Assembly: GCF_963676685.1 (NCBI RefSeq)
Contig: NC_092354.1
Location: 64,790,001 to 64,854,000, forward strand
DNA: 64,000 nucleotides
Source of the DNA: Mytilus edulis
Lineage: Eukaryota
Direction of reading: 5' to 3'
The stretch's first letter is position 1, and every line of letters starts with the position of its first letter. The position numbers and the translations under genes are program-made. Positions 1,772 to 45,363 of this stretch are shown here, in pieces. Under the pieces are notes generated by a model, which was given only the letters and a program-made list of their open reading frames with translations, did no database searches and was not told where the DNA came from.

Positions 1772-3664
1772 TCATTTTCTGTAAACATTAAAAAAAGAAA
1801 TGTTCTTGTGTGTATATTCTTTCTCCTTATCTCTACTTCTTTCGCTTTTAATTTCTGTTTGCATGGTTTTTATTTCTTCGTTCTTCTTTTTTTCTGTCTC
1901 CCTGATCTTTCTCAATAAATCTGCTAGCTTTTCTTTCCATTCACGTTCTTCCCTTTCAAGTCGTCGTTGAAAATTTTCACTACGTTCCGATTTTACTCTT
2001 TCTATCTCTTTCAATTTTTCTTCACTTTTTTCTTTTTCCGATTTTCTTCTCTTTAGCATATTTTCTATCCGATGCTTTTGTAAAATATTTTCATCTTTGA
2101 TTTCTTTATCTTTTCGAAGTGATCTTCTCAGAGAAGTATCTCTAAAATAGAAAATTTTAAAAATTTAAAAATATATATTTTGAAATACAAAATTTAATAA
2201 TGTATATTGTTATCCGTTTATATTGTATTGAAGTGCTTTATCAGAAGATTTGTTTGTACTTAAACTATATACAGAAACTATTTTCTTGCTCAAATGGGAT
2301 CTTTTCAAATTGCATGTTTCTCCTGAAAAAAAGTGTCAGCTTTTATCATTACGATTGCTATTGTTCTAGGCTAATACGACAGCTTTGGCTAAACTGAAGC
2401 AATATTTATTTGCGTACCTGAATTTTTCTTTAGTTAAATCTAGACTTTTAACTCTTCGTTTATTGTTTTCTATTTCTTTAAGTTTCCTCATCTCCACTTC
2501 TTTGATTCTATGAAGCATACGCATGTCTTCTTCTTCAATGTGACGTCTTAATTTCATAAAACGACGTTTGATATTTTCTCCTTTTTTCAACTTTTGCCAT
2601 TCATCTTCTATAATACGTTTGTATATTTTCTCGAACTTAGCATGACTTTGTAAATCAAGTTTTTGAATATTTTGTGACAAGGCAGTGTTTTGTTTCGTGA
2701 TTGAATTTTCAATTTTTCGTGATCGTTCACTTTGCCGAGATCGATTCGTATCCAATCCCAGGCTATGATATGCATCTCTTCTACTCCTTTCCACATATAC
2801 AGTATGCAAATGGGTTTCTAAGTTTGCTAGCGGCCCAGTCCAAAAACACTTTTTCCATTCGCATCGTACGATTTTCTGGTTTATACGCTCTTCTAACTCG
2901 ACATTCTCGCGGTAAAGTCCATCCACTCGGCACATTGGACAGGAACCATGCGAAGCGTGGTGACTCCATCTTGTTATGCAGAAGTGACAAAATTGGTGGC
3001 TATTTTTACACTCATGGGGCTGCCGTAAGATGTGACAACTACAAGAATTATCATATATATATTAATAACACATTACGCTATTATTTTCTTCTTTTATTGT
3101 AGATTAGTACATAGTTTTACATCTTTTACTACATTAATTTTGGTGCATGTATTATTTCGCAGAGGTAAAACATAATTCCTGACCCATTTGGTCACAATTG
3201 GTCCAGTCGATTCATTTCAAAATATGAGAATATACCTTTTTGTTGAACTAAATTTGCAAACGACTCTTTTATATGTGAAAATATCTTGAAGCTCGATCAA
3301 TATAGGTCATAACGGGCTACAGCTGCCTGGCTATATGATATGAGTTATTTTCTCATTGTTGAAGGCCAAAAGTTATTGCTTATATCAACGTCATTTAAAC
3401 TCTGGTTGATAATTTTCTTCTACCATATCTACATTGTACGTTATTTTCTTATATAAAGAGTGAACTCCCATTCTACTCTACACCTTCCGATATAACCAAA
3501 CAAATATATTACATCGAGAGTAAAACATGGCATCTTATTTTTGATTTTAAGCAATTAAACAAATTAAATTAATGCGTTACAAACCATATTGAACATGTGA
3601 ACTCTTCTTTTTCCTCTTCTGTAAGGTTGAAAAATAAATTATCCCTATATCCAACGGAAGCCAT
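1772..3664 (-). CDS. RING-HC + TRAF/SIAH-like zinc finger + 18-residue-repeat helical protein (paralogue A, 356 aa), putative E3 ligase
   Basis: Manually spliced exons 3664-3585, 3038-2418 and 2141-1772; GT/AG introns, both phase 2; 1071 nt open. MASVGYRDNLFFNLTEEEKEEFT-CSIC-CHILRQPHE-CKNSH-QF-CHFC-ITRWSHHASHGS-CPMC, then CEWKKCFWTGPLANLETHLH and a charged helical tail. Confidence 0.9.
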
Positions 3665-6533: not shown

Positions 6534-7793
6534 CTATTTATCAGATATATTTCCCATTAATTTTTTAAAAGCATCCTTGATTCTCTGTTGTTCCCTTTCT
6601 TTTGCTTCTAATTCAAATTTAAGTAAAGTTTTTTCTCTCGTTGACATTTCGGGTTCAACTTCCGGTCCTGGCTCTGTGTTGATGTTAGTTTGTTTGAGTT
6701 CCTTTTTCTTTTCTCGGATATCTCGTATCGCATCAATCATTGTATCCGTTGCCAATTCTTTCTTTTTAGACATATTTCTAATTCTTTTCCACATATTTTC
6801 GTCTTCTTTTAATTTTTCCTCATGCAAAACCCGTTGTTTCCTGAAAAAGGCTAGCTTTTCCTTTTCGGCTTTTAATTTTACATCGGCGATATTTTCATGC
6901 ATGTCTGATCCTAAGCCCCCTTTAGATGTTGATACTTTTGATATTCGTGATTTTAAGTTTGAGATATATTCTTGTTTCCATTTTTCATCGTTTTGCCTGT
7001 ACGTAGAAGATATTTTTCTCCTTCTTTCAATTTCCTGCTTAAATTTTTCATTTCGCTGACGAAGTACCTCTCTCTGTTTGATTTTCTCACGTTCAAGGTT
7101 ATTTATTCGTTCTGCCAGGGATATTGCATCCTGTTCAAATTGTCGCTCTACACTGCGAAAGTGATGCAACGAGTTTTCAATTTTTTGTTGTCTGTTACTG
7201 TCAATAATGTGCATGGCATGTTCTGCTTTGACGCTTGCTTTGGTTTTCTGTCGTTCAAGTTCATTAACACGTCTTTTCATTGCTTCGAATTGTTCTTTAT
7301 TTTTCTCTTCTCTCAATTTATTTTCTCTTTTAATTGAATTTAATTTCCGAATTGCGGCTTCCATTAGCTGCTTTTCTCTCTCAAGAGCGTCATTTCGTTC
7401 CTTTTCCCTAGCTCTATGTGTACGCGTTTTAACATTTTGTATCCTCGTTGAAAGAAACTTCATCCTTTCGGCCTCCTCTTCCTCCATTTTTCTCATTTTT
7501 CTACTCGCTGCTTCATTGCTATCTCTTTTTCTTTTATCTAATTGGGTAATCCTTAAAGACAAAGAACTAGTATTATGCTGCTTATATCTTTCCAATTTCT
7601 GTGCACGATCTGCTAAAATCTTTTTGTCGCTCTCCTCCCGTCTGGTTTTCTCAAACGTTCGATTTTTATCTTTTCTGATTTCCTCGTCCTTTTTGATAAA
7701 ATCATCAATAAGGACCAATAATGCTAACCTATTTTTTGTTCCTATTTGCTTCCATTGTCTTTCATTTTCATGCAAAGATCGCTGTAAAAACAT
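6534..7793 (-). CDS. Charged alpha-helical/coiled-coil protein with 18-residue repeat (419 aa), single coding exon
   Basis: Long ORF; splice acceptor (ttctcttttag) at 7827 followed by an in-frame TAG before the ATG, so the upstream exon is non-coding (candidate donor AAG|gtaagt near 8970); repeats RAQKLERYKQHNTSSLSL / RITQLDKRKRDSNEAASR / KMRKMEEEEAERMKFLST. Confidence 0.82.
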   Translation of the reverse strand: MFLQRSLHENERQWKQIGTKNRLALLVLIDDFIKKDEEIRKDKNRTFEKTRREESDKKILADRAQKLERYKQHNTSSLSLRITQLDKRKRDSNEAASRKMRKMEEEEAERMKFLSTRIQNVKTRTHRAREKERNDALEREKQLMEAAIRKLNSIKRENKLREEKNKEQFEAMKRRVNELERQKTKASVKAEHAMHIIDSNRQQKIENSLHHFRSVERQFEQDAISLAERINNLEREKIKQREVLRQRNEKFKQEIERRRKISSTYRQNDEKWKQEYISNLKSRISKVSTSKGGLGSDMHENIADVKLKAEKEKLAFFRKQRVLHEEKLKEDENMWKRIRNMSKKKELATDTMIDAIRDIREKKKELKQTNINTEPGPEVEPEMSTREKTLLKFELEAKEREQQRIKDAFKKLMGNISDK

Positions 7794-8677
7794 CGATTGT
7801 GCTTTCTAGCTGTGATATTGCAATGCCTAAAAGAGAAGTATTAAGTGCATTTTAAAAAAGGTAACAAAAGGGTTGTGTTGTACAAAATGTATCTCATCTA
7901 CACCCGAGTGTAAATCCAAAGTTAGTTCAAATAAGAAATATACATTGTTCATTTGTATATGTTGTCTATAGTTTACTCATATGTACATGTATATAGACTT
8001 TTGTGAAACGTTACGTAAACAACATGTATTCTGAACTTGTGTTTCATAGAATATTGACAGTATGAACTACAAAAAAAGAAGTAAAATCATCAAAATACTG
8101 AACTCTAAAAAAAGCTGGATTGAACCTGGTTTTAAAGCTAGCTAGACCTTTCACTTGTATGACAGACGCATCAAATTTCAATCTATCTTAACTCAAAAAC
8201 AAAATCGGTGATCTTTAATTCAATTAGAATGTATGGACTACCATTTTTTTCCTCAATGTCCAATGGCAGGTGTTGCATTAATTTTCTGAACGATATTAAA
8301 TATAAAAAAAAAATCGATAGATCCGTTATAAAAAAGGGAACTGACTAGGATGAAGGACAGGCGGTATGTTGGAAAAGGTAAGAACTTCAGCATCTTGCAG
8401 TGAGATATCTATTTTGATGAAAGACATTATTATGATAATGAATATAAAATATCGTAAATACTTTGCATGTTTTATTCTCATGAAAATTAGAATTTGCTTG
8501 ATCGGTATACATTGTGCATCTCTTTGAATGTGTTTTGATACATGTAGCAAAGCAATGATCGTGCATAGCAACCCGGCCTACCGTCTTTTGTATACGCATT
8601 ACAATTATTGTTCTGACAATTTGTTGATAGATATTTACAATATATATAATAATAATAATAATGATAATAGATATAAT

Positions 8678-8824: not shown

Positions 8825-10343
8825 TAATATTCTTAACAATATCGTACTGCACACTCGGGAAAAACTTTATCCAAACATGAAATGATTAAAACTGCAGGCA
8901 GTTGCATTATTAATGCAGGAAAAATTAGATAACATAACTTGAAAAGTGTTTTTTTTTTAGCAAGACTTACCTTAATCTTAAAGATCTACTAACTATGTTA
9001 ATAACAGCCAGTCTGTTTGTTTATTAAATTAAAGGTGTACAAAACATATTTGTAATTATATTCTGTCCTTTTGTCGTTAGTCAGCTCTTTTGTATGTTAC
9101 ATATTATTGTTTTTAAATTGAAAATTTTAATGAGAATCTAAAAAATCAAAGAACTCATTGCTTTCAAATTAAATATCTTAATAAGATTCAAATAAGCATC
9201 TGTATCAAACCGATATGTTATTTTTGAATATTTTATTAGTCATGTCATGTCGCTATTTGTACTACCTGCCATGTTTGTTTTGTTTGTAGTTAGAATTTGA
9301 AATCAATGAGTATAATTTTCGTCTTATTTTACTGTCTTTAGAACACTCTGTCAAAAGTCATTTTAAAGTCATCAATTTAGCGGAATATGTTACAAATCAT
9401 ATTTGAATGCTTGAAAGGGTGAAAACTATACTCCTGGGAACTTATTTTGTTTTGAAACGTTAGTATTCAAATAAAATCTTAATTTACCTATCTTATTCAG
9501 TTCAGCAATTTTATGTTTTTTAAATGTCAGTTTAATCAAAGAAATTGATACAAAGTTAAATTTTAGTAGTTCTACATTTTTGCACTTGTATTAGAAAAAC
9601 ATATAGTACGAAAATAATTAAGTAGTAAGAAAATTTATATATAGTATCAAAAAAAGATGTGGTATGATTGGCAATGAGAAAACACTTTGCAAGACCAATT
9701 GATACATAAATTAACAATTTAAGTTGATCGTAAGGCATTCAGCAATTAGTATAGCAAAGCTTACACGACATAGTCGGCTATAAAAGGCCCCGGATAAAAC
9801 GTAAAACAATTCAAACGAGAAAATAATGTACAAAATTAACGAAAACCAAATATGTAACACAGCAACAAACGACAACCTATGACGTAAAGGCTCTTCATAT
9901 TAAACATGCACATACATGTACATACATAATGTTATACAAAGCTACAAAAAATATTACAGTTTATCCCATTTTTTGATATTTTGAAAATTCACATATTGTA
10001 CATATTACAACGTTTGTGAATGGTGATTTCTTTTGTGAAGAAACATATTTATCAAATTGTTTACATTTTCATTTTTTTGATAATTCAACACCATAAACAA
10101 ATTGATCTATACTAATACATGTAATATTCTGCAGTAAAACAAAACTCTTTCACACGAAATTAACATAATTAATTCCCTTGATATGACTTTATTTAGTTTA
10201 TGGGTTTGTAAATGTGGTTATTTACTTTTATCAGTGAATTATACAATATATTGAGCTTCTTCTCGTTTTGTTACTTACATTGTGTTCAATTTACATGTTT
10301 CTGTATCATTATGTTAGAATAAATGTTAAATCATTTCACATTA

Positions 10344-10400
10344 TATGGTAATATATTTGCTGGTATCTAAATGTGTATTCGTAATGTATACATATATATA
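10344..10400 (+). promoter_or_regulatory. Candidate type-3 Pol III promoter (PSE-like element + TATA) of ncRNA copy 1
   Basis: TATGGTAATATA...TGG at about -80 to -60 and TATATATA at -31 to -24; equivalent elements at near-identical spacing precede all five copies. Confidence 0.65.
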
Positions 10401-10423
10401 CATATCGAAAGCATGATTCTATT

Positions 10424-10686
10424 GGAGATTGAAAGAACTGTGTCTACAGAGCGGTTTCTTGGATGTGTTGGTGTTTAACATACACTACGATACACGATCA
10501 TACACATGTGTACTGAGATTGAAAGGCGACAAGGCACTTTCATTATTAAGCAGAGACATACATGCGAATGTCTCCGATCAAAGGTACATTACAACTACAA
10601 GCAGATGTATGCTACAGTTATATGACAGCGAATGCATAAAGCTTTGCAAGGTCGTACTGAGACACGGTGATTTCAAATCTTCTTTT
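10424..10686 (+). ncRNA. Candidate Pol III panhandle ncRNA, copy 1 (~263 nt)
   Basis: 5' GGAGATTGAAAGAACTGTGTCT pairs with 3' AGACACGGTGATTTCAAATCTTC, followed by TTTT; TATA at 10393-10400; internal hairpins such as TGAAAG/CTTTCA and GAGACAT/ATGTCTC; no internal T4. Confidence 0.72.
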
Positions 10687-12819
10687 ATTTCTGTAAAAAA
10701 TAAACGTTATTAAATTTAAACTTATGTATATAGTTCTATACATTTCACGATGCAGTTATATGACATTCTTATACAATACTAGTTGATCCTTTATGTAGTT
10801 ACTGTTGTTTTGTATAATAAAGAGGCATTCGCTTCCAACTTATGCTCAAAGATATTTTAAAACTCTATTTCTCCGTCCAAACATGTTTCGAAACGATAGT
10901 TTATGTTATACACTACATGTACGTTAACGGATACTATTTCTGTTTACTTATTTTATATGTGAATTGTCATTGCGGAAATGAAAACACACATTACTATTTT
11001 CGATTGTAAGATGTTATAATAAGTACTACAACTGTTCTATATATGGATTGATACGTATCATTAGAGATGACAAGGATATTGTACAATGATTAACGAACTG
11101 ACGTATGCGTAATTTGACGAATTGTACAAAACGGGAGCTGCTGTTTTGTACAAAGAAATGAATAAATCTAACATGCATACGCTGGTTGAAGTTTAGTCAT
11201 TCGCATCACTTGCATGTAGTTTAAAGAAGATAGTATCTGTTTATAACTACTCACATAAATTATTCAATGTTTTCCACTACAGCGAATGATGCACTCGATA
11301 TCCGAGACTTTTCTTTTGAAAATATATGCATAATAAATAAAATAACAAAAATACCGAACTCCAAGGAAATTTCTAAACGAAAAATCAGCAGGCAAAGGAC
11401 AAAAAATCCAAAGCTCAAGCACATCAAACAAATGAATAACAACTGTTATATTCCTGACTGGTTACCGGATTTTTATAGTAAGAAAATGGTGGATTAAATC
11501 TGGTTTTATAACTAGCTATACCTCTCACTTATATAACAGCAATTTAAAAATCCATTTTATTGACATCGATGTATGAACAAAAACAAACAGACAGAAACAC
11601 CTAAATTTCTCTTAGTTAATCTGAAGAACAGTAGTTCTCGTTTGTTTATGTAATTTATACGTGTTTCTCGTTTCTCGTTTTTTATATAGATCAGACCGTT
11701 GGTTTTCCCGTTTGAATGCTTTACACTAGTAATTTTGGGACCCTTTATAGCTTGTTGTTCGGTGTGAGCCAAGGCTGCGTGTTGAAGGTCGTACTTTGAT
11801 CTTTAATGATTTGCTTTTATAAATTGTTATTTGGATGGAGAGATGTCTCATTGGGACTCGCACCACATCTTCCTATATCTATGATAGTTAAAAATATCAA
11901 AATTATAAGATTGATGATCAACACATATATAACTCAACAAAATTGTGAACACTTCAGAAATTAAGAATAATCTAAGATTTGTAATTATGATTAGTTCATT
12001 TTGTTTTAGGAGTAGGAAACACCTAAATTTCTCTGAGTTATTATGAGTTTCTACCTTGAGGAAGGCAAATAAATTCAAAGGACATGAAATTCGCAACCCC
12101 AACCATTCCCAATCATCGAAATGTCATAATGATCAATCATAGTATTTGCTTTTCGAGTATTTTGGAAAATCAATGCTATTGTAAATACATGTACATTTTG
12201 TATTCATTATTTTAGATTTTTTAAAAACAAACCATGTCTTACAGATTTTACTCAAACCTATGTAAGTAGTGGCGATACATAGACTAAGTGGTATACACAT
12301 AGAAAATTCAATATTCTAATACATTATGATGATTGAAAAAATAATTATAAAAAGGAAAAAAGGCGGGTCTACCCCATGTGTTTTTTTTTTTAAATGCTTG
12401 TTTTTTCTTCAAAATAGTAGAACGTCTTTATGCAAAACCAATTATGCATTTTGTCTAGTAAACTTCAATAACAAAATGATTTATTTACTCTTATGACCAC
12501 CAACATAGTTGCGAAGGTTAGAGGTTGACAGTTATGATAAAGAACTATTTGCAACATAAATCATTTCTTATTTGAAAAAAAAACACCTGTACATTTTCTT
12601 TTATTTTAATTTTAAACGGAGATATTTGTTTGTCTGAATCCTAAATACGTAAATGAAAACACAGAGCAAGCATACGATACGACAAGAATAAAGTTATAAA
12701 TTATTTAAGCATTCATAATTGATTGAACACATTCATCGATGCACTCAAATAGTGATGCACATTTCATTTTAAATCAATAATTGCCAACAACCATATTCTA
12801 TCGTAAAAAAAAGAAACAC

Positions 12820-13115
12820 GGCCCAGTAGTCAGCACTTCGGTGTTGACATGAATATCAATTATATGGTCGTATTATAAATTTTCTGTTTATAAAACTTTG
12901 AATTTTTCGAAAAACTAAGGTATTTTCTTACCCCAGGAGTAGATTATCTTAGCCGTATTTGGCACAACTTTTTGGAATTTTGGGTCCTCAATGCTCTTCA
13001 ACTTTGCATTTGTTTGGCTTTTTAACTATTTTGATCTGAGCGTTACTGATGAGTCTTATGTAGACGAAACGCGCGTCTGGCGTATAAAATTATAATCCTG
13101 GTACTTTTGATAACT
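12820..13115 (+). mobile_element. Retrozyme/Penelope-associated repeat carrying a hammerhead ribozyme
   Basis: ~300-bp unit containing the hammerhead core at 13040-13083; boundaries approximate. Confidence 0.65.
13040..13083 (+). ncRNA. Type I minimal hammerhead ribozyme
   Basis: GCGTTA-CTGATGA-GTCT(TATGT)AGAC-GAAAC-GCGC-GTC-TGGCGT: stem I GCGUUA/UGGCGU, intact CUGAUGA and GAAA cores, stem II, palindromic short stem III, GUC cleavage triplet ending at 13077. Confidence 0.85.
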
Positions 13116-15462
13116 ACTTGAAACTTTTTAAAAGTCTTATTTTATGCTCTCCACTCAGTTACACCCTTTAACACATTTATTGTTGTATAGATATCTATTG
13201 TTCTATTATTGTCCATGCCAATCAGGGAAATAAATACAATACAATACAGTTGTTACCTGAAAGAGAGGGAGCATCTCAAGGATTTCCCAAATTCAATATA
13301 CTTTTACACCTTCTGCAGAAACAGAAAATTAATGCCCATATAAATCCAAATGATATTTTGTCTTATTGAAACACAATATGCATTCAACTTTTATGGATGC
13401 CATGCCTTAAAAACTTTTAAACTGCACAAGTTAGTATGTACATAGTAGATTTTGAGGCGTTAATAAGCATTTGTTTTGATGAACCTACAATTCGTTCGTT
13501 AATATCGTGGTAATCTCTACTATCAGAAAGCTTTATTTGAAATGAACTGTATTGATTGACATGAACAATAGAGAAACTATACATACCTGACAATAATTGG
13601 TGATTTAAACAGTGTCATTTAGCGTAACATATATAGTGAAACTCAACTGAAAATTTAATCATCTTCTGCAGAACCAAAGTGCAGAGTAAAAACCCAAATA
13701 CTCCGGTGAACTACGTCTGTTTTGATCACTATTATCCGAGTAAAAATTTTGAATTTCTACAATGTACTGTCTTCGCTAATTATCTTATTAACGTGTTATT
13801 ATTGATCTTTGATTTCTTGTTGTAAATTGTTGCTTTTTTCCCGTTGTGTCCATTTGACGTGGCTCTGTACAGTCAGGATTCTAATCCGTCAAAATTATCT
13901 CCCCATTACGCCAGTTAATTTTCACAATTGTAGAAATTGAAGCCATTATAGGGATGACGCGCTGCCAATTTTTGTCTTCAAAACCGATAAATTTATCCAC
14001 ATAGCATCATACGATCCTTATATGTCAATTGTATTTTAAAAGATAAATGTATCTACTAGCTAATGAGCATCAGTTAATGATCATGTCTGCATTGATTCAA
14101 CTTATAACTATTGACTGATCGGTTGTCAGGTGGAATTTTCGAAAATTCTTAAACATTTAAAAAAAATTCTTTTAATTTATTAAATATTTCGTGGAAGGGC
14201 AGACTAGATATTTTCAGTGGCTGAAGATTACTAATTCTAGTTATCACACCAAAAATTATATTTTTTCGAAGATATGCATTTTATCTTATGTGATAAAAGT
14301 AAGAGGTTTAGCTAGTTATACAACCCTGTTCAATCCACAATTTTCTACATAAGAAAATACCGGAACCGAGTAAGGAATATGGCAGTTGTTTTCCCGTCCA
14401 TTTAAGGTTTTTTTTTTTTTTTATTTTGCCATTTGATGAGAGACTTTCCGTTTGGATTGTTTTCCGGAGTCCGCTAAAAATTGGACCACTAATAATATGT
14501 TAATGGAATCATTAAATAGCTGTGTTGCTATCATGAGTTCATTGTTCAAAGCATTGACATTCATGTGTTTATTTATTTATTCTATTAACTCAATATTCAG
14601 CCTAGGATAACATGGATAACACGAATTTGACCATCAATATTTCTGTAATCCTTTAGACTCACTTTCATCATTCGAACGACATGCATCGATTGTTATTAAG
14701 TAAATCCCTATCTTATTATTATTTTCACTTTCAAACCAATGGTTATATCATACGTGTTTCACATATTATTAATCAAATCTGTCATCTATCCATACATATC
14801 AATTCAATCGTATTTTGAATCCATAAAAACGTTAAAATCATATTTAGGCCTTTTAAACTTTTATATCCCTCTCCTGTGTCATTGTTAATGTCAATTTGTT
14901 ACAACAACCAAAATGTTCCATCCACTAATAAATTTCACTTGTATTAGAAATACCGATAGTACGAAGATAATTAATTGTTAATTAGCTACAATAAAATATA
15001 ACAGTGTATCCCTATATTACTTAATATTTGGACTCTGTTTGTAAAGATCAAATTGTATATATATATATAACAAGAAATGTTATAAAGATTTGTTTTACAT
15101 AAAATGTATAATATTTAAACAAAAATCAGTAAATCAACACCATTAAATAACTTTTATGTGCTAACATTCAGTAGCAAAAGAACTCTTACAAAATAAATTA
15201 ACAGAATTATATCCCTTGATGTGATCTAATTTAGTATATGGGTTTGTAAATATAGTTCTTTACTTTTATCAGTGAATTATACAATATAATTAGCTTCTTC
15301 TCGTTTCGTTTCTTATACATTGTTTAATTCACACGTTTCTCTATTATCATATTAGGATAGATGTAAAATCTGTATACATTATATGGTAATATATATCCTG
15401 GTTTCTATTTTTGTATTCGTAATGTATATCTATAAATACCTTTTCCAACGATAGTTTCAAAT

Positions 15463-15701
15463 GGAGATTGAAAGAACCGTGTCTGTAGGTTGGTTACTTA
15501 GATGTTTTGGTGTTGAACCAATGTTATATACACCATGATACACAAAGTGTACTTAACAAGAAAGGGTTGACCTATGATGCAACTTTCTTACGTACATTGC
15601 AGCTTTGCGGTTGTGCAGCCGTATGAAACAGTTTAAAAAAGAGCGAATACCCAAAAAAATCGCTTGTTCAACTGAGACACGGTGGTTTCAGATCTTCTTT
15701 T
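15463..15701 (+). ncRNA. Candidate Pol III panhandle ncRNA, copy 2 (~239 nt)
   Basis: GGAGATTGAAAGAACCGTGTCT ... AGACACGGTGGTTTCAGATCTTC then T8; TATAAATA at 15431-15438; upstream TATGGTAATATA; internal hairpins AAGAAAGGGTTG/CAACTTTCTT and AGCGA/TCGCT; one internal T4. Confidence 0.72.
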
Positions 15702-16087
15702 TTTTATTTTCTCGAAAAATAAACGTTATATAATTTTAACTAATTTATAGTTCTATACATATGATACATATACCCATATAGTTTTTATAAAATTCTTATG
15801 CACGACTAGTTGATCCTTCATGATGGTAATATTGTTTTATATAATAAAAAGGCATTCGCATCCAACTTATGCCCACCCATTTTGTTTCAAACTTTATTTC
15901 TCCGTCCATACATGTTTCGACACAATAATATCTTCAATATATTACACTACGTTGACAGATATAATTTCTGTTTACTTATGTTTTATTTGTATGTCATTGC
16001 GGAAACACACTACTGTTTTCGATTGTGAGATGTAATAAGTACTACAACTGTTCTAGATATGGATTTATATGTATCAATAGAGATATA

Positions 16088-16209
16088 CAGAATAATAGGT
16101 AGTTTCGTTTTTGATTCTGACTATATAATGTGGAATATCTAGACGAGGGCGAGTTAAGATATTCCACATGATATAGTCAGTATCAAAAATGAAACTACCT
16201 ATTATTCTG
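16088..16209. mobile_element. Palindromic fold-back element inserted in the 3' flank of ncRNA copy 2
   Basis: ~50-bp near-perfect arms CAGAATAATAGGTAGTTTC...GAAACTACCTATTATTCTG; absent from the homologous flank of copy 1 (~11060). Confidence 0.8.
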
Positions 16210-18300
16210 TTTCTCGGTAATTATGACGTCACACAATGTATTGCCTAATATTTTCAGTGATACAGCCAGTACGTTGATACTCGAAAATATTAGGCAGTAA
16301 GAGCAAAGGAAAAATATACGAAGTACCGATTAAACAAGGATATTGTGCGATGACGAGCGAACTAAATAAAGCGTAATTATACGAATTGTACGAAACGGGA
16401 GCCGCTGTTTTGAACATAGTAATGAATAAATCAGACATAAAAACGTTGATTGCTTCTATACATATAATTTCCGTTTACTTATTTTTTTATATGTATGTCA
16501 TTGCGGAAACACGTATTACTATTTTCGATTGTGAGATGTAATAAGTACTACAAGTGTTCTAGATTTAGATTAATATGTACAATTAGAGATGACAAAGATA
16601 TTGACTGGTTCTAACCTGTTCGGTGTGAGCCAAGGCTCCGTGTTGAAGACCGTACCTTGACCTTTAATGGTTTACTTTTGTGAACTGTGATTTGGATGGA
16701 GAGTTGTCTCATTGGCAATCTTCCTATATCTATCTACTGACAATAATTTGTGGTCTAAACTGTGTCATTAAGCGGAACATATCAAATAAAACTTAACTGT
16801 TTGATAATTTAATCATCTTTTGCAGAGCCGAAAAAAAGTACAGAGCAAAATCCCAAATGCTCCTGGGTACTACGTTTGTTATGAGTACTAGTACATGAGT
16901 AAAATCTTAGGTCACCTACAATGTATCTAATTAAGCTGCGCAATTTTAAATGTATGTTTAATCAAAGATATTACAACAAAGACAAATTTATTTTATGAAG
17001 TCATTTAGTTCTGTGTTGACAACACGAGTTTATTGTTATTTGTCAAGTAAAGTAAAGCATTTACATTTATGCATTTATTTATTTATTTTATTTTACTAAT
17101 TATTATGCCGAAGATAACATGGATTTGAGTTTCAATATTTTCTGTAGACTCTTGTCTATCATTCGAACGACATGCATCGATTGTAATTAAGTTTATCCCT
17201 ATTTCGTTTGTATGTTCGTATGTTCGTTTCTATAATATCTCTTAAGCCAGACTAGACTGAGTGGTCCGTAAGATTTGCAAGCGCTGCTGGACACAATATG
17301 ATCATGTAAAAGGAGAAGGTTCACGAAGGGTTAAAATTGGCCCTAAATTTTTTATGTTTTTTAAATCGGGCCAAAAAACTACAATTTCACATAGAAATAC
17401 TTGTGATAATATTAATAAGACAAAAATATATTTTCATGGCACCTTCCTTTAAAATTTATGGAGCTATGACCCCTTAATTAAATATTATTTGTATATTAGG
17501 TCAATTTTAGTAATTTTTTTCCATAACTTTAATTGTTTTTTTGGCATAATTAAACTTGGCCGCCATCCACGATCCAAAAAGTATTTATATTGATGAATTC
17601 TATATCAAAAATGGAATTTTTTGGTTACAAAACATTTTGGATCATAGGTGGCGGCCAAGGTTTTTCCTACAGCTTTTAGGTCTGAAAATTGCACAAAATC
17701 ATCATATTTTGACAAAATGTTCAAAATGGGCATACTTTGGAGAATAGTATGTACTTTTATGAAAACAACTGATTTATTAAGCATTAACGATGAAGGCTTT
17801 TGAAATAGACCCATTTACAAACCAAATAGTGACCTTTTTGGTTTTATGAAAAAGTTGATATTTTAGATAATTTTTGTCATGAGTGACCATTGTCCTTTAC
17901 TTATTTCGCTTTTATCCTTTCAAATTTGTATTCCTTACAGTTAGAAATCTTCCAAATTAACTATTTATATTATTGAATGGTGTCACTCAATTTATATTTA
18001 GCTAGAAAAAAATATTACAGTTTATCCCGATATTTCCTAATATTTGGACTCTGTAAAATTCATATTGTATATACAACAAAAAATGTCTTTTTGCGAAGAA
18101 ATTAATTTTTTCAATAACTAACACCATAAATAAACTGATATATGCTAACATTCAGTTGTAAAAAAAACTCTTACAAAACAAATTAACAGAATTATCTCCC
18201 CATATGTGATTTAAGTTAGTATATGGGTTTGTAACTGTAGTTATTTTCTTTTATCAGTGAATTATACAATATATTGAGCTTCTTCTCGTTTTGTTGCTTA

Positions 18301-18655
18301 CACAGTATGCATTTCATGCATTTCTACACAGTATGCATTTCATGCATTTCTACGCAGTATGCATTTCATGCATTTCTACACAGTATGCATTTCATGCATT
18401 TCTACACAGTATGCATTTCATGCATTTCTACACAGTATGCATTTCATGCATTTCTACACCGTATGCATTTCATGCATTTCTACACCGTATGCATTTCATG
18501 AATTTCTACACCGTATGCATTTCATGCATTTCTACACCGTATGCATTTCATGCATTTCTACACAGTATGCATTTCATGCATTTCTACACGGTATGCATTT
18601 TATGCATTTCTACACAGTATGCATTTCATGCATTTCTACACAGTATGCATTTCAC
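18301..18655. repeat. 26-bp minisatellite, ~13-14 copies
   Basis: Unit CACAGTATGCATTTCATGCATTTCTA. Confidence 0.95.
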
Positions 18656-18781
18656 ACTATTATCATGATAGAATAACTGAAAAATCGTCAAAGTTACGTT
18701 GTATGGTAATATAACTCTAGATTTCTATATTTGTATTCGTAATGTATACCTATATATACATCTCCAACAGTTGAAAGAATC

Positions 18782-18984
18782 GGAGATTGAAAGAACTGTG
18801 TCTAAGCATATAAGCAGGTCTTTGCAGAACGTTGCTCTTAACAAGATAACTGGCGGGACGAATGTAAAAATATGACTATTTGATAAAAATGATTGATACG
18901 CAAATGCGACTGTTTTAAGTAGCGTCGGCATGCAGTGATCGCGCATTCATAAACTGATACACGGTGATATCAGATCTTCTTTTT
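18782..18984 (+). ncRNA. Candidate Pol III panhandle ncRNA, copy 3 (~203 nt)
   Basis: GGAGATTGAAAGAACTGTGTCT ... ATACACGGTGATATCAGATCTTC then T5; TATATATA at 18751-18758; upstream TATGGTAATATA; one internal T4. Confidence 0.68.
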
Positions 18985-20359
18985 CTTCGAATAATAAACG
19001 TAATTACAATAAATGTACAGTTCTTGATATAACACCATTTACTTTTTAGAAGTTCTACAAAAATTAATTTGCTATACTAAATGTTATAACTCATGTTTGT
19101 ATATTAAGACAAATAAAGTCCTATCGATTTAAGATCTTGATCTTTAAACTTAATAAGCTTGCACGTTCTGAAATTTTTAGTCATATTAGAATCTCACAGT
19201 CTTTAGATCTTCTCATGCCCATGTCAGACCTATCAAACGTTTGTTATTGGAGTGAATTAAAATCCTACATGTGTGTATCAAGTAATTTCTTAATTTTTTT
19301 GTATACATCTATATATTTATCCTTTTTTTATTATTATTGGAGACTCATGGTTGTAATAACAATTATAGCAGTTTTATTTCTTAATATCTAAGATACATTC
19401 AGTGCCAAATTAATGTCCCTCAAATTTTATTGCACTCTCTTAACTTCACCGGCGAAACATGTTTCGACTCTACAGTATCTTTATATTGTAATGTGAATCA
19501 TAAACCGATAAAACATATGTTTAACTATTTGTATGATAATGGCTATAAATTAAATACATAATGTTCATTACTGTTTTAGATTGTGAGATAAAATATTCTA
19601 CCACGTTTTCGATTAATGGATAAGTATAAACGCACGGTAACAATATTGATTGATGAGCACAAAAAGGTTACATTCGTGTCCTCATAAAGCTTTAATAAAA
19701 ATATAATGCAGTTACCTCAACACTAGGAACTATATTCGTGTACAACGAAAATCGATAATTGTGGTCTCGGACATCTTATATGGATTGTTTTTCTTTTGAA
19801 AGTATCATAATTGGAAAAAGTAAAACCCCAATTAGCAACAACGCACAGTAACTATCAATTTAATCACATCGTCGTCTCTCTTTTAAGTACATTATTAACT
19901 TTAACAGGAAAAACAATGACCTAACAAATGTAATCATTTTATGCCTTGAAGGCAATTTCCTTGAAACCTCAGTTTCGTTCGAGTTGATTCTTCAAAAGAA
20001 AAACATATCGTTCTGAGTGAAAAAATAAGCGTATAGATATATAAGATTAAAAGAAAATAGAATTCTGACAAATGTTTTCGATGTTTTTGATAGATTCTAG
20101 TCGTCTGATTTGTAATTTTACTGATTGTGTCCTGATTTCGACTGTTGACATTCGTCGTACATGTAGTTTGGAATTGCATAGCTATTGATGCATTCATAGC
20201 ACGATACGCTTTTAACATGTAGATGCACTCGTTTTCGATCCAGATAACGTTTGTTTACTTGATTTGAATTTCTTTATATACCAGATTTGATCACCAGTAA
20301 ACTAGTGTTCTCTGAATCCCCCTACAATTGAGACAATGATAATGTATTCATGAAATCAT

Positions 20360-20531
20360 NNNNNNNNNNNNNNNNNNNNNNNNNNNNNNNNNNNNNNNNN
20401 NNNNNNNNNNNNNNNNNNNNNNNNNNNNNNNNNNNNNNNNNNNNNNNNNNNNNNNNNNNNNNNNNNNNNNNNNNNNNNNNNNNNNNNNNNNNNNNNNNNN
20501 NNNNNNNNNNNNNNNNNNNNNNNNNNNNNNN
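20360..20531. other. Assembly gap (172 N)
   Basis: Run of n characters. Confidence 1.
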
Positions 20532-22328
20532 AAAGAGGCGGAAGAAGAAGAAGCTACAGAGCTCATGTTTACGTTGTTGAATCATACATTTCATGTTCGA
20601 CCGTATATTTTCTGACTTATGCAAATAGAGTTAATATAGTTGATCATAGTTATACAAGCAAATATAGTTATACAAGCAAAGCTGAGTTGATATTTAAAAA
20701 AAAGACCTTAACATATGATCTGTTAGTCTGTATAGGTTTCAGATAGCTCACTAAAGCTCGTGGACAGGACAATTAGTTTACCAACAAGTCAACTTAGAGC
20801 AAATAAGGGAATTATGTGCACTTTTAACACAATTATCAAATTACTTTATAAACTCACGAAGCAGCAGACAGAGCATGGTACACAATATCCTCTTTACTTT
20901 GAAGTGCGATAATGTTATTGTATATATACATGTAGTGTTTTAATATTTTGATTGTATCATCATCTAACACGGATATGTAAACATTGAGGATACCTTTGTA
21001 TTTTACTATCACATTTATTTTACATGTCAGCACGAACTATGGGCTTCCCCACGTCTATTTTTAGAAACAAAACAAATATGCGGTATTTAAGTTACTGTTA
21101 AGGACTTTTACAAACAAACACGCATATTATCCAGATGGGAGACTCAATGAATTTTAAATTTATTTCAAATACTCTAGATCTATTTCCTTCTATTAAAAGG
21201 AACATTTAGCATTCTTATCTATATACAGAGCTGAATCTTTTTAATTCTAGTCGGAATTAATCAACTATGCATCTATATACACCCATTACTTAAAGTAATA
21301 CCATGGAATTTTACTCTAGCACCTAGTTCTTTTAGGTCACTAAATATATTCGACGTAAAACCATTCAAGTTTGAACTTTCCAAAAAGCGGCACATACTGC
21401 TTAGCTGTATCCGAATTTTAAGTACTAATTGGAATGCATGTGATTGCCGATTTAGTACAGGAAGTGTGGAACTTTCTATATATATTGATTGATATAATTT
21501 TTTTTTTAATTGTACGTTATACTAACTATTCTGGTACCCGGCACCATAAAGATATTCTCCATCATGAGCTATAAATAACTGCATGTACAGGTATCAATGA
21601 ATCATTCACTCAATTAATCAAACCAGTAGTTATATTCATATCACACAATAAAATCAGCCATCCAGTCATATCAATTCATTAGTTCGTTGAAATTATTAGA
21701 AACTTAATTCAATATTAACGCCTTTTACACTTGATTCATGTATCTTTTATTGTTACTTTATATTTCCCTTTGCATTTGTTTGCCAGTAAAAAAGGTTTTC
21801 CCAACACGATTCAACTAATTGTTTTCAAAATACCTATAATAAGAAGATAATTTATCAGCAAAAAAAGATTTTAATAAAAATACGTTACAGTTTAAAACAC
21901 AATTTCCAAATATTTAGAATCTGTTTGTAAAATTCATATTGTATAAGAAAAAATATATGTGACTTGAGATTGCTTTTGTGAATGAAAAATATATATCAAA
22001 TTGATTAAACTTTCAATTTTTCAATAACTCATCACCACAGGTAAACAAACTCTTTATAAAAAGTTAACAGAATTACTTCCCCTGAAATGCATTAATTTTG
22101 ACTATTGGTTTTTCATCGGAGTAATCTACTTAAATCAATGGATTATTCGATTCATTGAGCTCCTTCTCGTTTTGTTGCTTAAACAGTGCACAAGTTACAC
22201 GTTTATTTTTTATCAGGATAGTATAAATGTAAATTCGATATATAATATATGGTAATATACTCCCTGGCTTTCAATATTTCTATTCGTTATGTATACCTAT
22301 ATATACGGTTCCAACGCTGAAATTAAGT

Positions 22329-22513
22329 GGAGATCGAAGGAACTGTGGCTAAAAAGTTCACCGATTATTAAGGTTGTTGATATGGTCATGAACATGTTGC
22401 AACATGCGGTAACATCTCAGGTAATGTGCAATCTGAGTGTATAGTTATTGCGGGCATAGGCTATTGCACTATTGCTTGAATAATCAGCCACGGTAATTTC
22501 AAATCTTCTTTTT
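22329..22513 (+). ncRNA. Candidate Pol III panhandle ncRNA, copy 4 (~185 nt)
   Basis: GGAGATCGAAGGAACTGTGGCT ... AGCCACGGTAATTTCAAATCTTC then T5; compensatory U-A to G-C change; TATATATA at 22298-22305; second stem GATTATTAAG/CTTGAATAATC enclosing three hairpins; no internal T4. Confidence 0.75.
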
Positions 22514-22933
22514 CATCAGAGAATGTTATATTAACAAATATAAAGTCATCATGTGTCATGGCCACGGGAAATTAGATTCCCATGATACAAGAAGATAGGA
22601 GAAAAACAAATTGTAAATCAAGACGAAGTTCTTTAATATGTTTTTATCTAAACCATTTTTACTGTTTATCTGCATTTACCGCTTATGAAACGATTTTCAG
22701 ATTTATAGTGGTTTAAGTTTTTATGCCAACCAGTAGCAAACAATGCCATTTTTTCTGTTATACTACAAAACATTACACTTGGTACCAAAAGTATTTCCGG
22801 ATATCGTCTTGTAGTATTTTGTAATGTAGAGGTGTTATAAATATAAAGTAAATAATAACAAAAATGATATGATGTCCATATTAATGCGTTACCGGCTACC
22901 AAATTGACGAAGTTAACCCTCCAAATTAATTTA

Positions 22934-23380
22934 TCAAATAAGTCTGATCAAGTTGGTATAAGGGCGTCCGTAAATTTCACGAAGGGATGATTTCAACTTC
23001 ACCATTTGGAACTCTTGGTTTAAAAGCGTCCTTGTAAGCAGCAACCCTCTATCAAGAAAATCATGATAGGAAATACAAGCACGGGAACCTAGTATCAATT
23101 GGGAGGTATATATCTCGTATGCAGGTGCTGCTGGAATGGTGCTACTTAGAAATGGAAAGTTCACAATTGGAAAGCTGAAGTTATCTCTTTTGTCGTAAAG
23201 AATAGTTTTCAACCGACCTTCATGGTCAATTTCTAGATGTAAGTCAAGATATGATGCCGACTTAACTGTATCTGTTGTATTTATCTCTAGTTCCATGGGA
23301 TAGATGCGTTCAACATAGTCACCAAATTTAGAATTATTTAGTGAGAGAAAATCATCTTTTTAGCAGAAAGTAAAGTTAAT
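22934..23380 (-). mobile_element. Degenerate reverse-transcriptase fragment, Penelope-like retroelement
   Basis: TTDTVKSASYLDLHLEID..GRLKTILYDKRDNFSFPIVNFPFLSS.IPAAPAY resembles the RT thumb/C-terminal region of Penelope-like elements; truncated. Confidence 0.75.
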
Positions 23381-23539
23381 GGATATTGCAATAAACGCTG
23401 AAAAACAATGAAAAAATATATGTAAGACATGATCAACATATAAGTCAAATTGCTGGAATTGCCGGTTGACTCCGTGTAGGAGCTACCGCCATTAAATGAC
23501 GTTTTTTTTCTTTTCTTTTTTTCAATAACTTAAAAATAT

Positions 23540-24515
23540 AAAAAAGAAGATGTGGTATGATTGCCAATGAGACAACTATCCACAAAAGACCAAAATGACA
23601 CAGACATTAACAACTATAGGTCACCGTACGGTTTCAACCATGAGCAAAGCCCATACCGCATAGTCAGCTATAAAAGGCCCCGATAAGACAAAGTAAAACA
23701 ATTCAAACGAGAAAACTAACGGCCTTATTTATGTAAAAAAATGAACGAAAAACAAATGTGTAACACATAAACAAACGAAAACCACTGAATATACAGGCTC
23801 CTGACTTGGGACAGGCACATACATAAATAATGTGGCGGGGTTAAACATGTTAGCGGGATCCCAACCCCCTCTAACCTGGGACAGTGGTATAACAGTACAA
23901 CATAAGAACGAACTATAAAAATCAGTTGAAAAAGGTTTAACTCATCAGATGGACAAAAATATAAGTGGACGTGGCCTGGTACTTATACATCCCGACACAA
24001 AAAGACACAATGAACAGATCTAAGAGTACTCGCAGTTATCTGACAGCTAATTCAAAGCCACTAACAACTAATAAAAAATCATGCATCTAAGACTAAACTA
24101 TCAATCCGTACACATCCAACATCCAATGGATTTAGTGTAAAGACATCATGAACAGCCAGAGAACAACATGACCTTGTGCAATGCCAAGTTACAGGTATCG
24201 ACAGATTGTAGATCCATGAATATGTATATATATAACATACTAGTAAAATTTAGTTAGCTTTTAATCTGCTGATAACAAAATCAATATTTATTCCAATAAA
24301 AACAATATTCAATGATCTTATTACGGTGTTGAATAGGCAACCTTTTAGAATAAGTTTTTTTAAAGGAGCGACAAGTTTACATGGATCATTTCTAAATTTC
24401 CGGGCACGGTTAACAACATTTCCGTAAAAATGAGGTTGTTCTATCCCGTTTGAAATAAGTTTTCTACAGGTACATCCAAACTTCAAAACCAAATCTTTAT
24501 ATCTATGGAAAAAGT
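23540..24515 (-). mobile_element. 5'-truncated retroelement: C-terminal ORF fragment (24250-24510) plus downstream non-coding region equal to the abundant dispersed repeat
   Basis: ORF end KLISNGIEQPHFYGNVVNRARKF..LKKLILKG..IRSL is contiguous with the longest copy of the dispersed repeat. Confidence 0.6.
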
Positions 24516-24983
24516 TTATTTTTGTATAGTTACAAGCCTCTAAATAATATATTGTTTTGACAAAATTCTAGAAATGTTTTCGTCAATATGAATTAGTGAT
24601 ACTCGAGTACTCGCTCGGCAAAACATCTATAAAATGGTGACACAAAAGTAAACCCATTTTAAGTATTGTATGCTGTTTTCTTATTGACTGAAAACCCTCA
24701 ACATTTTTTATTAGGAGTAAAGTATAGTCCAAGGCGACGACTTTATGCAGAAAGCCGAATTTCTATTGAGTGGTCCCGCAGTTCATGTCGCTGCAATCTG
24801 AATTTTTTTTTTCAATACCGATTGCGGGAAGACGTTAATTCAGTAGTATTATGTTTGTTAAGATTGTAATTAGATAACGGATTCTAATTTCAAAAGTCTA
24901 TGTACAATTGTTTCACAGTAAAACGAAGTCATTCATTTTGTAAACATTTTTTTTTTACGAAAACAACGCAACAAAACAAACAC

Positions 24984-25494
24984 CATCTTCGCTAGCCAAG
25001 GGTTACGATCCACTTCCCTCCTCTCCACCCTTGGCAGATTAAGCCAACATTTGTGATAACAACTGTTGCGCCATCTATTGGTAAATTAAAGTCACGCACA
25101 TTCCGAATATATTATTCTTGACCAATGGTAGCACCTGAACTCTTCAATTTGGAAGTAAAAACACGGTAGCGTCTAAATTCTACACGCTTTGTAAAGCAAG
25201 AAACGAAATTGTACGTTGAAATTCATGCATTTATGCAAGAAACATACATATAAACTTTAACTAGTCGATTATAAACATTCAAATTCTCACTAAATATAGT
25301 CGTATGTTTAGGGATGTAAAGACTTAATAATAAGCACGTGGCAATTGTTTACATACACTTTCTATATTTATACGTGATCATGTTATAGGCGCTTTTTGAT
25401 TGGATACAGCGAGTTTCGACTGTAACCAATGAAAATCATTACCTTGAGTCTCCGAACTTCTATCTCAATCCGCCAAGGGTGGATAGCGAAGATG
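24984..25494. mobile_element. MITE-like element (~510 bp)
   Basis: Inverted termini CATCTTCGCTAGCCA ... TGGATAGCGAAGATG. Confidence 0.65.
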
Positions 25495-26245: not shown

Positions 26246-26970
26246 TTAAGTCAAAATCATAAATAAAAGATTATAATTATAAAAGTCAACGCACGATTGT
26301 TTTATAGTTAAACTAAATCATTCAAGTATAGAAACATGAGCATTGTGTTCATTTTGAAGTGTCATATGACGTTATGGGAACTAAGATTACAAAATATATA
26401 TTACTAGATAGCATTTTATAATGTTTAATAGCATATATAGGATAACTGACATCTGTTGGGAAAAACCTTAATAATGTTAAAAAAAATGGTGGCTGAGTTT
26501 GTTATAGCAACTCTATTATCAAAAGAATGTATCTACAACTATGCTATTGGTGTTGCTTTAGGACATTCAATTGCATATCCCGTCATGATGAGGAAATTGT
26601 TATTTCGTATGTACAAAACGTATCGAATAAGTATCATTTAACTGTTTAGTTAGTTCAATATCATATAAATACTTCATATGTTATTTGAATTGTAAACAAA
26701 AGAATAAAATAATTGGTTATCGCCCTTAATGAGTTTTAACTTAATTTAATTTCTTGTTAGACGAAACGTTTACTTTTATAACTAAATGGTATGATAAAGG
26801 TTGATTCTTGTCTTTCTTAAAACTTGTTTACAATCGTACATTGTTGTGATCTTTTAGTTAAGATAAAATATTTGAAAGATCTTCTCCGTAGTATGGTAAT
26901 ATAATGCCATGGCTTGTTGATTTCATTTATAGTATACACCTATATATAGTTTTCAAAATAAACTACTTGT

Positions 26971-27269
26971 GGAGATTTAAATCAACATGTCTATGGTCTC
27001 TTACATGTTATACAAGTATACTGGTGTGTCCGCGATAATAAGTATCCAAGTCTTTGTTTCGAGATTGGGTCTGATTCTGAGATGAGTCAAATGTGGTTTA
27101 AAAGTATGACATATAGATCATGAGGCGCAATGCCACCCTCCTGTGGGTCGATATGTTAAATACATAAAGCAATTATCGTGATCCAGTACTGTTAATGTTG
27201 ATTTTAAACGGTGCATCTAGCGGGAGGACTGAATGTTACCGAGACCTGTTGATTTCACATCTTCGTTTT
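26971..27269 (+). ncRNA. Candidate Pol III panhandle ncRNA, copy 5 (~299 nt, most divergent)
   Basis: GGAGATTTAAATCAACATGTCT ... AGACCTGTTGATTTCACATCTTC then GTTTT; AAAUCAACA/UGUUGAUUU is fully paired despite sequence change; TATATATA at 26941-26948; upstream TATGGTAATATA; internal stems TACTGG/CCAGTA and CGCGATAAT/ATTATCGTG. Confidence 0.68.
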
Positions 27270-37363: not shown

Positions 37364-37473
37364 GGCAACTTTTCTATCAAGTCCATTTCCTTGTCATAAC
37401 GACTGGTATGCATTTGGTGTGTTTATCTGTTGAAAAGAAAACATTATCTAATAAATGCCTGTAATATTATTAG

Positions 37474-44956: not shown

Positions 44957-45363
44957 TTTGTTTACATATTGACTTTCATATTATTCGGTTAATATAATGT
45001 GTATTCTCTGGAAAATAAAAAGTTACTTGTTAATAACTTCGATACATTCTTTAAGATAGGATTCGTTTTATTTAACAAGGCAATAAGTTTTCTGTATTGT
45101 CTGTATGGTTTGTTTTCAAATCAATTTGCCTGATGTTATTTGTTGTTTACGGGGGGGGGGGGATTGTATCTACACTTTTTAACATACTATACACGTGTCT
45201 ACCTCAAGATTTCCTAAATATACATGAAATATTTGCCACTGGGCAGAAAGCCAACAGTATATAACATGTTATATAGGTAGCCGAATAACTTGTATCGTAC
45301 CAGATTTCAAAAGAAAGAGATTGTTCAAAGTGTGTTTTCTTTATTCCAAAACACATTTGATAA

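Follow-up and report, generated by a model that had tools for sequence, protein, structure and literature searches.

The repeat units at this locus of Mytilus edulis (contig NC_092354.1; the window analysed is a stretch of 64,000 nucleotides) correspond to five adjacent genes for a non-coding RNA that is as yet undescribed; its predicted end-to-end stem is fixed, and its middle changes fast. Each unit has the same layout: a U6-type element at about -80, a TATA box at about -31, a G start, a 22-pair stem that joins the two ends of the transcript, and a T-run. The RNAs are 180-294 nt long across the five copies, and copy 5 is the most diverged. The original prediction, made from the sequence alone, had described copies 1-3; its observation is confirmed and is explained by this layout, and the copies at 22329 and 26971, beyond the range then considered, extend the family to five.

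Table 1. Features of the RNA gene cluster (positions in the window)
Feature	Position	Strand	Remarks
Far-upstream block	9932..10343	+	Common to copies 1-4; partners at ~14973, 17989, 21876
Copy 1 promoter core	10344..10400	+	Octamer-like element -80, TATA -31
Copy 1 RNA gene	10424..10686	+	259 nt to stem end, then T4; interior 214 nt
Copy 1 stem arms	10424-10445 / 10660-10682	+	
Copy 1 downstream flank	10690..11188	+	Homologous to 15716-16084 and 16334-16452 (copy 2)
Copy 2 promoter core	15382..15438	+	Elements at -81, -32
Copy 2 RNA gene	15463..15705	+	235 nt, then T8; interior 190 nt
Copy 2 stem arms	15463-15484 / 15675-15697	+	
Copy 2 distal downstream blocks	16737..17202	+	Colinear with 13587-13766 and 14548-14711
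26-bp tandem array	18299..18654	.	13.7 copies; grown within copy 3 upstream block
Copy 3 promoter core	18702..18758	+	Elements at -80, -31
Copy 3 RNA gene (predicted)	18782..18984	+	198 nt, then T5; interior 153 nt; two additional stem mismatches
Copy 4 promoter core	22248..22305	+	Elements at -81, -31
Copy 4 RNA gene (predicted)	22329..22513	+	180 nt, then T5; interior 135 nt
Copy 5 promoter core	26892..26948	+	Elements at -79, -30
Copy 5 RNA gene (predicted)	26971..27269	+	294 nt, then G and T4; interior 249 nt

Five copies is a lower bound for the family. A motif scan of 100 kb on either side of the cluster gave no sixth copy. Pattern searches gave two further matches for the 5' end and six for the 3' end, all of which lack promoter and stem on inspection; the promoter pattern gave five further matches, uninspected, against 24 control matches. 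Three matches in a metagenome pattern scan all fall in what looks like coding DNA from other organisms and have neither promoter nor 3' arm. The gene ends occur solely in the cluster, each time with the same promoter.

Promoters and terminators

In all five copies the TATA box lies at -30 to -32, ahead of a purine start, and the upstream element at -79 to -81, two mismatches from the corresponding element of the U6 and MRP genes. The genome's own type 3 genes have TATA at -30 (U6), -30/-31 (U6atac) and -31 (7SK), and in U6 the upstream element is at -79. In 7SK and U6atac the match to this element is weaker (2-4 mismatches), so it is not universal, and no PSE proper is defined. Of the 64,296 G positions in the adjacent 200 kb, only 11 have both promoter elements. 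We infer that the cluster is very probably transcribed by RNA polymerase III (Pol III).

The T-run follows the stem directly in copies 1-4 (T4, T8, T5 and T5, respectively); in copy 5 a G intervenes before T4. Internal T4 runs are present in copies 2, 3 and 5, and these, together with the T4-only end of copy 5, count against the explanation favoured below. Scanning with the A-box and B-box consensus strings for a vault-type internal promoter gave the A-box consensus in copy 4 only and an exact B box in none of the five copies.

The predicted terminal stem

The first 22 and last 23 transcribed bases are the most conserved stretch of the gene (82-100% among copies 1-4) and are mutually complementary. 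Pairing is found in 87% of 110 cells, compared with 30-49% in slid controls, and in single folds most stem pairs have a probability above 0.9. Three stem pairs are altered on both sides, with a U-A to G-C compensatory pair in copy 4 and two compensatory pairs in copy 5, where the internal loop is closed; this covariation, based on five related sequences, is equalled by 7 of 500 shuffles. Ten of the 22 pairs are invariant in sequence, G-U pairs are retained, and an internal loop occupies a fixed place in four of the five copies. The original prediction had spoken of fixed ends; the ends are indeed conserved, and they are in fact the promoter and this base-paired RNA stem, which it had missed.

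The stem that joins the 5' and 3' ends is divided into a lower and an upper part, and is accompanied by a variable loop and a U tail. Its nine-pair upper part carries GUG-CAC (UG-CA) at positions 17-19 in copies 1-4, a feature absent from copy 5. An A on the 3' strand forms the bulge, a C is present at position 7 in copy 4 only, and four of the five copies end in UCUUUU. The interiors, when compared with shuffles, show a clear gain in folding in copy 4 alone (z -1.2, -0.2, +1.2, -2.3 and -0.6 for copies 1-5), and no loop structure is common to the copies or clearly selected.

Expression

RNA contigs from run X1 cover 10424-10631 of copy 1, with no differences, and 15463-15682 of copy 2. A contig from run X5 covers 15472-15612 of copy 2, and none lies over copy 1. 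Each X1 contig has its first base precisely where the transcript of its copy is predicted to begin, and depth over the unique flanks is 0; RNA was checked at these two copies, and contigs are not formal proof of a start or a strand. In the interiors of copies 1 and 2 the X1 and X5 contigs show 0-1 differences. In runs X21 and X24, which consist of raw reads, depth over both copies is 0-0.14. Under five organism labels, RNA runs contain a fraction of 0.31-0.41 of the copy 2 query words, the part concerned being shown for X5 only.

Flanks and upstream block

The flank blocks named in the original prediction were recovered by self-BLAST, which pairs 10122-11068 with 15162-16084 (73%), 11070-11188 with 16334-16452 (80%), 13587-13766 with 16737-16925 (76%), 14548-14711 with 17054-17202 (75%) and, upstream, 14973-15340 with 17989-18325 (75%). 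More distant homology relates the downstream flank of copy 1 to 19269-19710 in copy 3. Two short downstream parts are dispersed repeats, namely the first 117 bp of the distal block (16737-16853; 37 of the 40 matches listed lie elsewhere) and ∼15965-16070 (23 of 26 matches elsewhere). By contrast, all 4 of 4 matches of the upstream block lie within the cluster, and the blocks are colinear.

The far-upstream block has a lower rate of change than the downstream flank, and is likely to be regulatory or converted. Its motifs in copies 1, 2 and 4 are absent from the eight known type 3 promoters examined, and in copy 3 the 26-bp array parts them from the promoter core.

Divergence of the interiors

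Among the ten pairs of interiors, that of copies 1 and 2 is the only one that is clearly homologous (z 6.9; local p 0/500 shuffles); the value for copies 3 and 5 (p 0.042) is unremarkable among ten tests. As originally claimed, the interior of copy 3 aligns neither with that of copy 1 (global z 0.8, local p 0.62) nor with that of copy 2 (global z 0.4, local p 0.09). The further claim, that change is faster inside the gene than in its spacer, is borne out by copies 1 and 2, in which 51 of 175 interior columns differ (0.29) compared with 177 of 982 (0.18) in five flank blocks (Fisher p 0.0013), with 10 gaps in the interior and 15 in the flanks (p 0.003). These two interiors are homologous and colinear along their whole length. 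Their simulated distance is 0.5-0.6, against 0.2-0.25 for the downstream flank (10690..11188 and its partners), which served as the neutral clock, and the interior has diverged 2-3 times more than the flanks.

The conserved upstream block makes copy 3 look younger than it is, the distance being 0.5-0.6 in the downstream flank and 0.15-0.2 in the upstream block; for copy 4 the downstream-flank distance is at least 0.8. Given the flank distance of copy 3, an interior at a distance of at least 0.7 requires only modest acceleration, and because the copy is older than the upstream block suggests, no cassette swap is required. In simulations, interior homology was detected in 129 of 200 cases at a distance of 0.6 and in 18 of 200 after twofold acceleration. 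A genome search with interiors 3 and 5, the two for which it was run, gave no other match.

The untranscribed bases from -13 to -1 are as variable as the interior (33 of 78 comparisons identical), which points to transcription-linked mutation; 134 of 186 comparisons are identical from -120 to -86, and the promoter elements reach 88-93%. Interior GC is 38-41%, compared with 25-30% upstream, and this raised content counts against purely relaxed drift.

Comparison with known RNA families

An Rfam scan of 9000-25000, a range that excludes copy 5, gave eight weak hits at E up to 5, none of them on the copies and none above the gathering score. No Rfam match to 7SK, RNase MRP, RNase P, U6 or U6atac falls in this range, the true genes lying elsewhere in the genome. 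Telomerase RNA was likewise rejected, all five copies lacking any 6-mer of the complement of TTAGGG, which we take to be the telomere repeat.

The closest likeness to be weighed is with the Y RNAs, although their Rfam model (RF00019) gave no match. As described for vertebrates (PMC4726728, PMC4030889, PMC10498592), Y RNAs share with the mussel genes a type 3 promoter, several diverged single-copy paralogues, a lower and an upper stem, GUG-CAC (4 of 5 copies), a variable loop and UCUUUU (4 of 5 copies). They differ in length (84-112 nt, compared with 180-294 nt), and the mussel stem is without the bulged C and is 3-4 mismatches from the Ro60 motif GGUCCGA (PMC4726728, PMC4030889, PMC10498592). 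The bacterial Ro60 motif GNCGAAN0-1G is one mismatch away in copy 4 and two or three in the others. The upper stem has A-U pairs at both ends and no G-C clamps, UUAUC is found at the loop start in none of the five copies, and the match of the 5' arm to a published human Y fragment primer is at chance level, 13-79% of 5,970 genomic GG starts scoring equally.

Nematode sbRNAs are reported as a Pol III gene family with a conserved bulged stem, unalignable loops of varying length and a nine-pair upper stem with a central UG-CA, all seen here, whereas the mussel copies lack their G-C clamps, bulged C and UUAUC (PMC4450293). Vault RNAs (RF00006) are likewise described as clustered Pol III paralogues with a terminal stem, a variable middle and a T-run, but the mussel copies are longer and lack the pair of A and B boxes (PMC7916137). 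The genome has canonical vault RNA genes of its own at other places, with 10 matches above the cut-off, of which five were inspected.

The genome also carries Ro60-like genes, at about ten places on one contig. These paralogues are 39-77% identical, and the Y RNA-contact helix, including the position of His187, is kept in all six Ro60-like genes examined.

Interpretation of the inverted conservation

The best overall explanation, and on balance a probable one, is that the cluster represents a new Pol III stem-loop RNA family with inverted conservation. Promoter and stem would be held by purifying selection and the loop would be weakly constrained in sequence; the loop would absorb the extra mutations that a Pol III gene incurs, and old copies would then lose all alignable similarity. 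We somewhat favour this combination as the source of the inverted conservation. In active tRNA genes a divergence peak is reported 12-15 nt upstream, with a mutation rate raised 7-10-fold (PMC6130373). As in the mussel genes, the bases just upstream of +1 are hypervariable, conservation returns at the TATA position and constrained RNA elements are kept; that work, in contrast, used mammalian orthologues and population SNPs where we have five paralogues, and the mussel upstream promoter is long and conserved (PMC6130373).

By analogy with the vertebrate Y RNAs, the common stem and the UCUUUU end may bind Ro60 and La, with the differing loops recruiting different partners. We consider this plausible, if short of probable, and the cluster a similarly tentative candidate for a molluscan Y RNA. 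It is rather unlikely that these are the missing molluscan Y RNAs in a more specific sense, enlarged and diverged, with a changed Ro60 site and with loops diversified by selection alongside the expansion of Ro60 to about ten genes.

A possible but weaker alternative is that the genes encode Pol III stem-loop RNAs unrelated to Ro60, in which a 5'-triphosphate panhandle, comparable to adenovirus VA RNA or nc886, would act as a ligand or decoy for dsRNA sensors, or as a substrate for export or Dicer, and the loop would be a spacer. The long terminal stem with its 3' U overhang and the failure of the Y-defining features are consistent with this, as is the reported binding of Y and vault RNAs to RIG-I (PMC9250025, PMC10914904), but the invariant pairs and the fixed internal loop exceed the needs of a plain duplex.

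It is doubtful that the loops of these same RNA genes were driven apart after duplication by positive selection in favour of novel partners or targets (in immunity, for instance), with each loop now conserved in its own lineage. The speed of the interior relative to the neutral flank and its retained GC content would fit, as would the near-identity of the RNA contigs to the interiors, the query words shared across five organism labels and the diversity of the Ro60 paralogues. However, the untranscribed bases from -13 to -1 are equally scrambled, the 2-3-fold excess lies inside the published Pol III mutation effect (PMC6130373), and the loops have no shared or clearly selected structure.

The original prediction had also proposed cassette-like replacement between fixed ends, which would here proceed by recombination or capture. 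Faster interior change stands; replacement itself is improbable. Nine of the ten interior pairs are without clear alignment, lengths range over 135-249 nt, and a homologous interior at a distance of 0.6 was still detected in most simulations; yet the interiors of copies 1 and 2 are colinear homologues, the flanks of copies 3 and 4 are old enough that few interiors would be detected after twofold acceleration, and the genome search gave no source for interiors 3 and 5. Two further readings, that the interiors are hypervariable exons coding for peptides and set between conserved introns, or that the inverted ends are transposon termini, are already largely refuted and very improbable: in copy 1 one plus-strand frame is free of stops throughout the unit and the ends are inverted repeats, but stops interrupt that frame in copies 2, 3 and 4, no frame is open in all of copies 1-4, the RNA starts at the stem, the kept G-U pairs suit RNA pairing and not DNA termini, and the ends are found only in the cluster and always with the same promoter.

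Significance

A 2009 survey reported Y RNAs only in vertebrates and nematodes, although Ro60 is widespread in animals (PMC2770079); a later review adds a few insects and a lancelet-type mention (PMC4726728), and another predicts that organisms bearing Ro60 should have Y RNAs (PMC4030889). Our literature search found nothing on Mytilus polymerase III together with 7SK, nor on a mussel Ro60 expansion. The cluster offers a concrete molluscan Y RNA candidate, expressed as judged from the contigs of copies 1 and 2; were the co-diversification of loops and Ro60 genes true, mussels would possess Ro60-RNA particles in combinatorial variety. Should the Y RNA identity prove wrong, the cluster would still represent a family of animal Pol III RNAs that is as yet undescribed. 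It would also offer a small natural setting in which to ask if transcription by Pol III is enough by itself to make the interior of a gene outrun its spacer.

Organisation of the gene cluster

The locus is a previously undescribed cluster of five genes for stem-loop RNAs of likely Pol III origin (copies 1–5). A search of this 1.37 Gb animal genome placed all four matches to the block upstream of the genes inside the cluster. Although dispersed repeats make up two short stretches of the downstream blocks, these blocks keep a colinear order and continue beyond the repeats, which identifies the units as segmental duplicates. Self-comparison of the window, positions 64790001-64854000 of contig C11, recovered the blocks named in the original prediction, at 73–80% identity, whereas the variable interior of copy 3, between the stem arms, aligned with neither copy 1 nor copy 2. 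The inverted conservation reported there, with flanks more alike than interiors in copies 1–3, is thus confirmed. The similar cysteine-rich starts of two open frames in the window suggest that a second duplicated gene family surrounds the RNA cluster.

Coordinates of features in the window and elsewhere in the genome (G000; C, contigs; L, loci)
Feature	Position	Remarks
RNA gene starts, copies 1–5	10424, 15463, 18782, 22329, 26971	
X1 contig, copy 1	10424-10631	0 differences
X1 contig, copy 2	15463-15682	One difference
Repeat with abundant reads	12821-13116	Some reads jump 13116 to 12821
Hammerhead-like match	13040-13083	Within this repeat; below Rfam cut-off
Insertion, copy 2 downstream flank	16085-16333	Long palindrome near 16090-16210
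Local duplication after insertion	15959-16084, 16462-16590	88%
Long charged, coiled-coil-like open frames	1772-3061, 6534-7805, 35042-37393, 43463-44980, 49627-50550 (minus strand)	
Open frames with similar cysteine-rich starts	2366-3061, 49627-50550	RING/TRAF-like (label by eye)
24-bp tandem array	60300-63836	About 146 copies; strong strand skew
U6 snRNA tandem array	G000:C10:45057210-45092312	At least 48 copies; 733-bp period
Ro60-like genes	G000:C7, about 12.28-31.81 Mb (L072-L077)	13 TROVE matches, about 10 places
Further TROVE matches	C4	3, exon-sized
Vault RNA matches	L078-L082 (C4, C1, C8; also C2)	At least 10 above Rfam cut-off

Promoter, stem and expression

Upstream of the predicted first transcribed base (+1), all five copies carry an element of 11 bases (−79 to −81) and a TATA box (−30 to −32), and each starts with GG. 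The genome's own U6 gene has its TATA box at −30 and, at −79, an octamer-containing element that differs from the cluster element at 2 bases and is the same in MRP; 7SK and U6atac have the TATA spacing in common with the cluster and an upstream element that matches less well. In 200 kb of neighbouring DNA, the two elements occur jointly at 11 of 64,296 G positions. The cluster genes are likely transcribed by Pol III.

In every copy the interior (135–249 nt) leads into a block of 23 bases that is complementary to the opening 22 bases of the gene, and a T-run comes next. Of 110 cells in the 22-pair stem, 87% are paired, compared with 30–49% in slid controls; 10 pairs are invariant, 3 have a change in one arm and 3 in both arms. 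The covariation score was reached by 7 of 500 shuffles, which for five related sequences supports, but does not prove, the predicted end-to-end stem.

Coverage of copies 1 and 2 was examined in random-primed RNA (run X1), where the contigs over both begin at the predicted first base and the unique flanks have depth 0. Run X5, taken to be RNA, gave a contig within copy 2; copy 1 has none there. Depth in raw-read runs X21 and X24 was 0–0.14 over both genes, which would agree with a non-polyadenylated RNA only if poly(A) selection had been used to make these two libraries.

Divergence of the interiors

The interiors of copies 1 and 2 are colinear homologues. Their mismatch fraction is 0.29, with 10 gaps; the corresponding values over 982 columns of their flanks are 0.18 and 15, so that faster change within the gene than in its spacer holds for this pair. 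Simulation puts their distance at 0.5–0.6 for the interior and 0.2–0.25 downstream; mismatches alone give about 0.4 for the interior. Simulated distances for copy 3 are 0.15–0.2 by the upstream block and 0.5–0.6 by the downstream flank, and for copy 4 0.3–0.4 and at least 0.8. The upstream block therefore does not evolve neutrally: selection or gene conversion probably maintains it, and the age of copy 3 is greater than it would seem.

The original prediction explained this pattern by diversifying selection or cassette-like replacement, an interpretation that is partly supported. Twofold acceleration at the age of copy 3 would give a distance near 1, at which 18 of 200 simulated interiors were still detectable, making cassette exchange unnecessary; for interiors 3 and 5, moreover, the genome contains no other match that could be a donor.

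We favour an explanation in which purifying selection would keep the promoter and stem while a weakly constrained loop would collect transcription-linked mutations. The promoter elements and stem are about 90% identical and positions −120 to −86 agree in 134 of 186 comparisons, yet over the 13 bases just ahead of +1, which are untranscribed, agreement drops to 33 of 78 (six pairs, not independent). Active tRNA genes, according to PMC6130373, have a 7–10-fold raised mutation rate and a divergence peak 12–15 nt upstream of the gene, and it is this correspondence that favours a mutation-based cause. Against a weakly constrained loop stands the GC content of the interiors, 38–41% compared with 25–30% in upstream DNA. 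Interior folding is clearly better than in shuffles for copy 4 only.

Relationship to Y RNAs

No Rfam family matches copies 1–4. U6, U6atac, 7SK, MRP, RNase P and vault RNA were rejected as the identity of the cluster because such genes sit elsewhere in the genome. The 7SK, RNase P and full U6atac genes, two of each, occupy separate sites; vault RNA matches lie in several pairs or small clusters, and the five inspected have a terminal stem, an A-box-like 5′ end and a T-run. A Y RNA model found no match in the genome, although with 51 candidates scored this is not proof of absence.

Compared with the Y RNA/sbRNA plan in PMC4726728, PMC4450293, PMC4030889 and PMC10498592, the cluster has the same type 3 promoter, two-part terminal stem, divergent loops and UCUUUU end, with GUG-CAC within a 9-pair upper stem in 4 of 5 copies. 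Unlike the RNAs described there, its predicted products lack the defining Ro60 site, the G-C clamps and UUAUC, and differ in size; we do not class them as Y RNAs proper. Similarity of the 5′ arm to the human Y fragment primer in PMC5331234 is at chance level, and copy 4 is one base short of the looser bacterial Ro60 motif as PMC4201824 gives it. A Ro60-independent panhandle role seems somewhat less likely than a Y-like role with Ro60.

Ro60 is expanded on C7, where the Ro60-like genes are mostly single open frames of 488–585 aa. Six that were inspected share 39–77% identity, and one matches human Ro60 (E 1e-133). Apart from His187, four residues of the Ro60 helix presumably have a role in Y RNA binding. 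The helix aligned with Xenopus residues 170–187 is kept in all six, including the position of His187, on which the binding of Y RNA depends according to PMC11277228. We tentatively suggest that the cluster RNAs may work with Ro60 as a Y RNA does.

The literature covered, with most subscription journals outside it, describes no such RNA family in a bivalve, and PMC2770079 has Y RNAs known at that time from vertebrates and nematodes only. The cluster is a testable candidate for a molluscan Y RNA.
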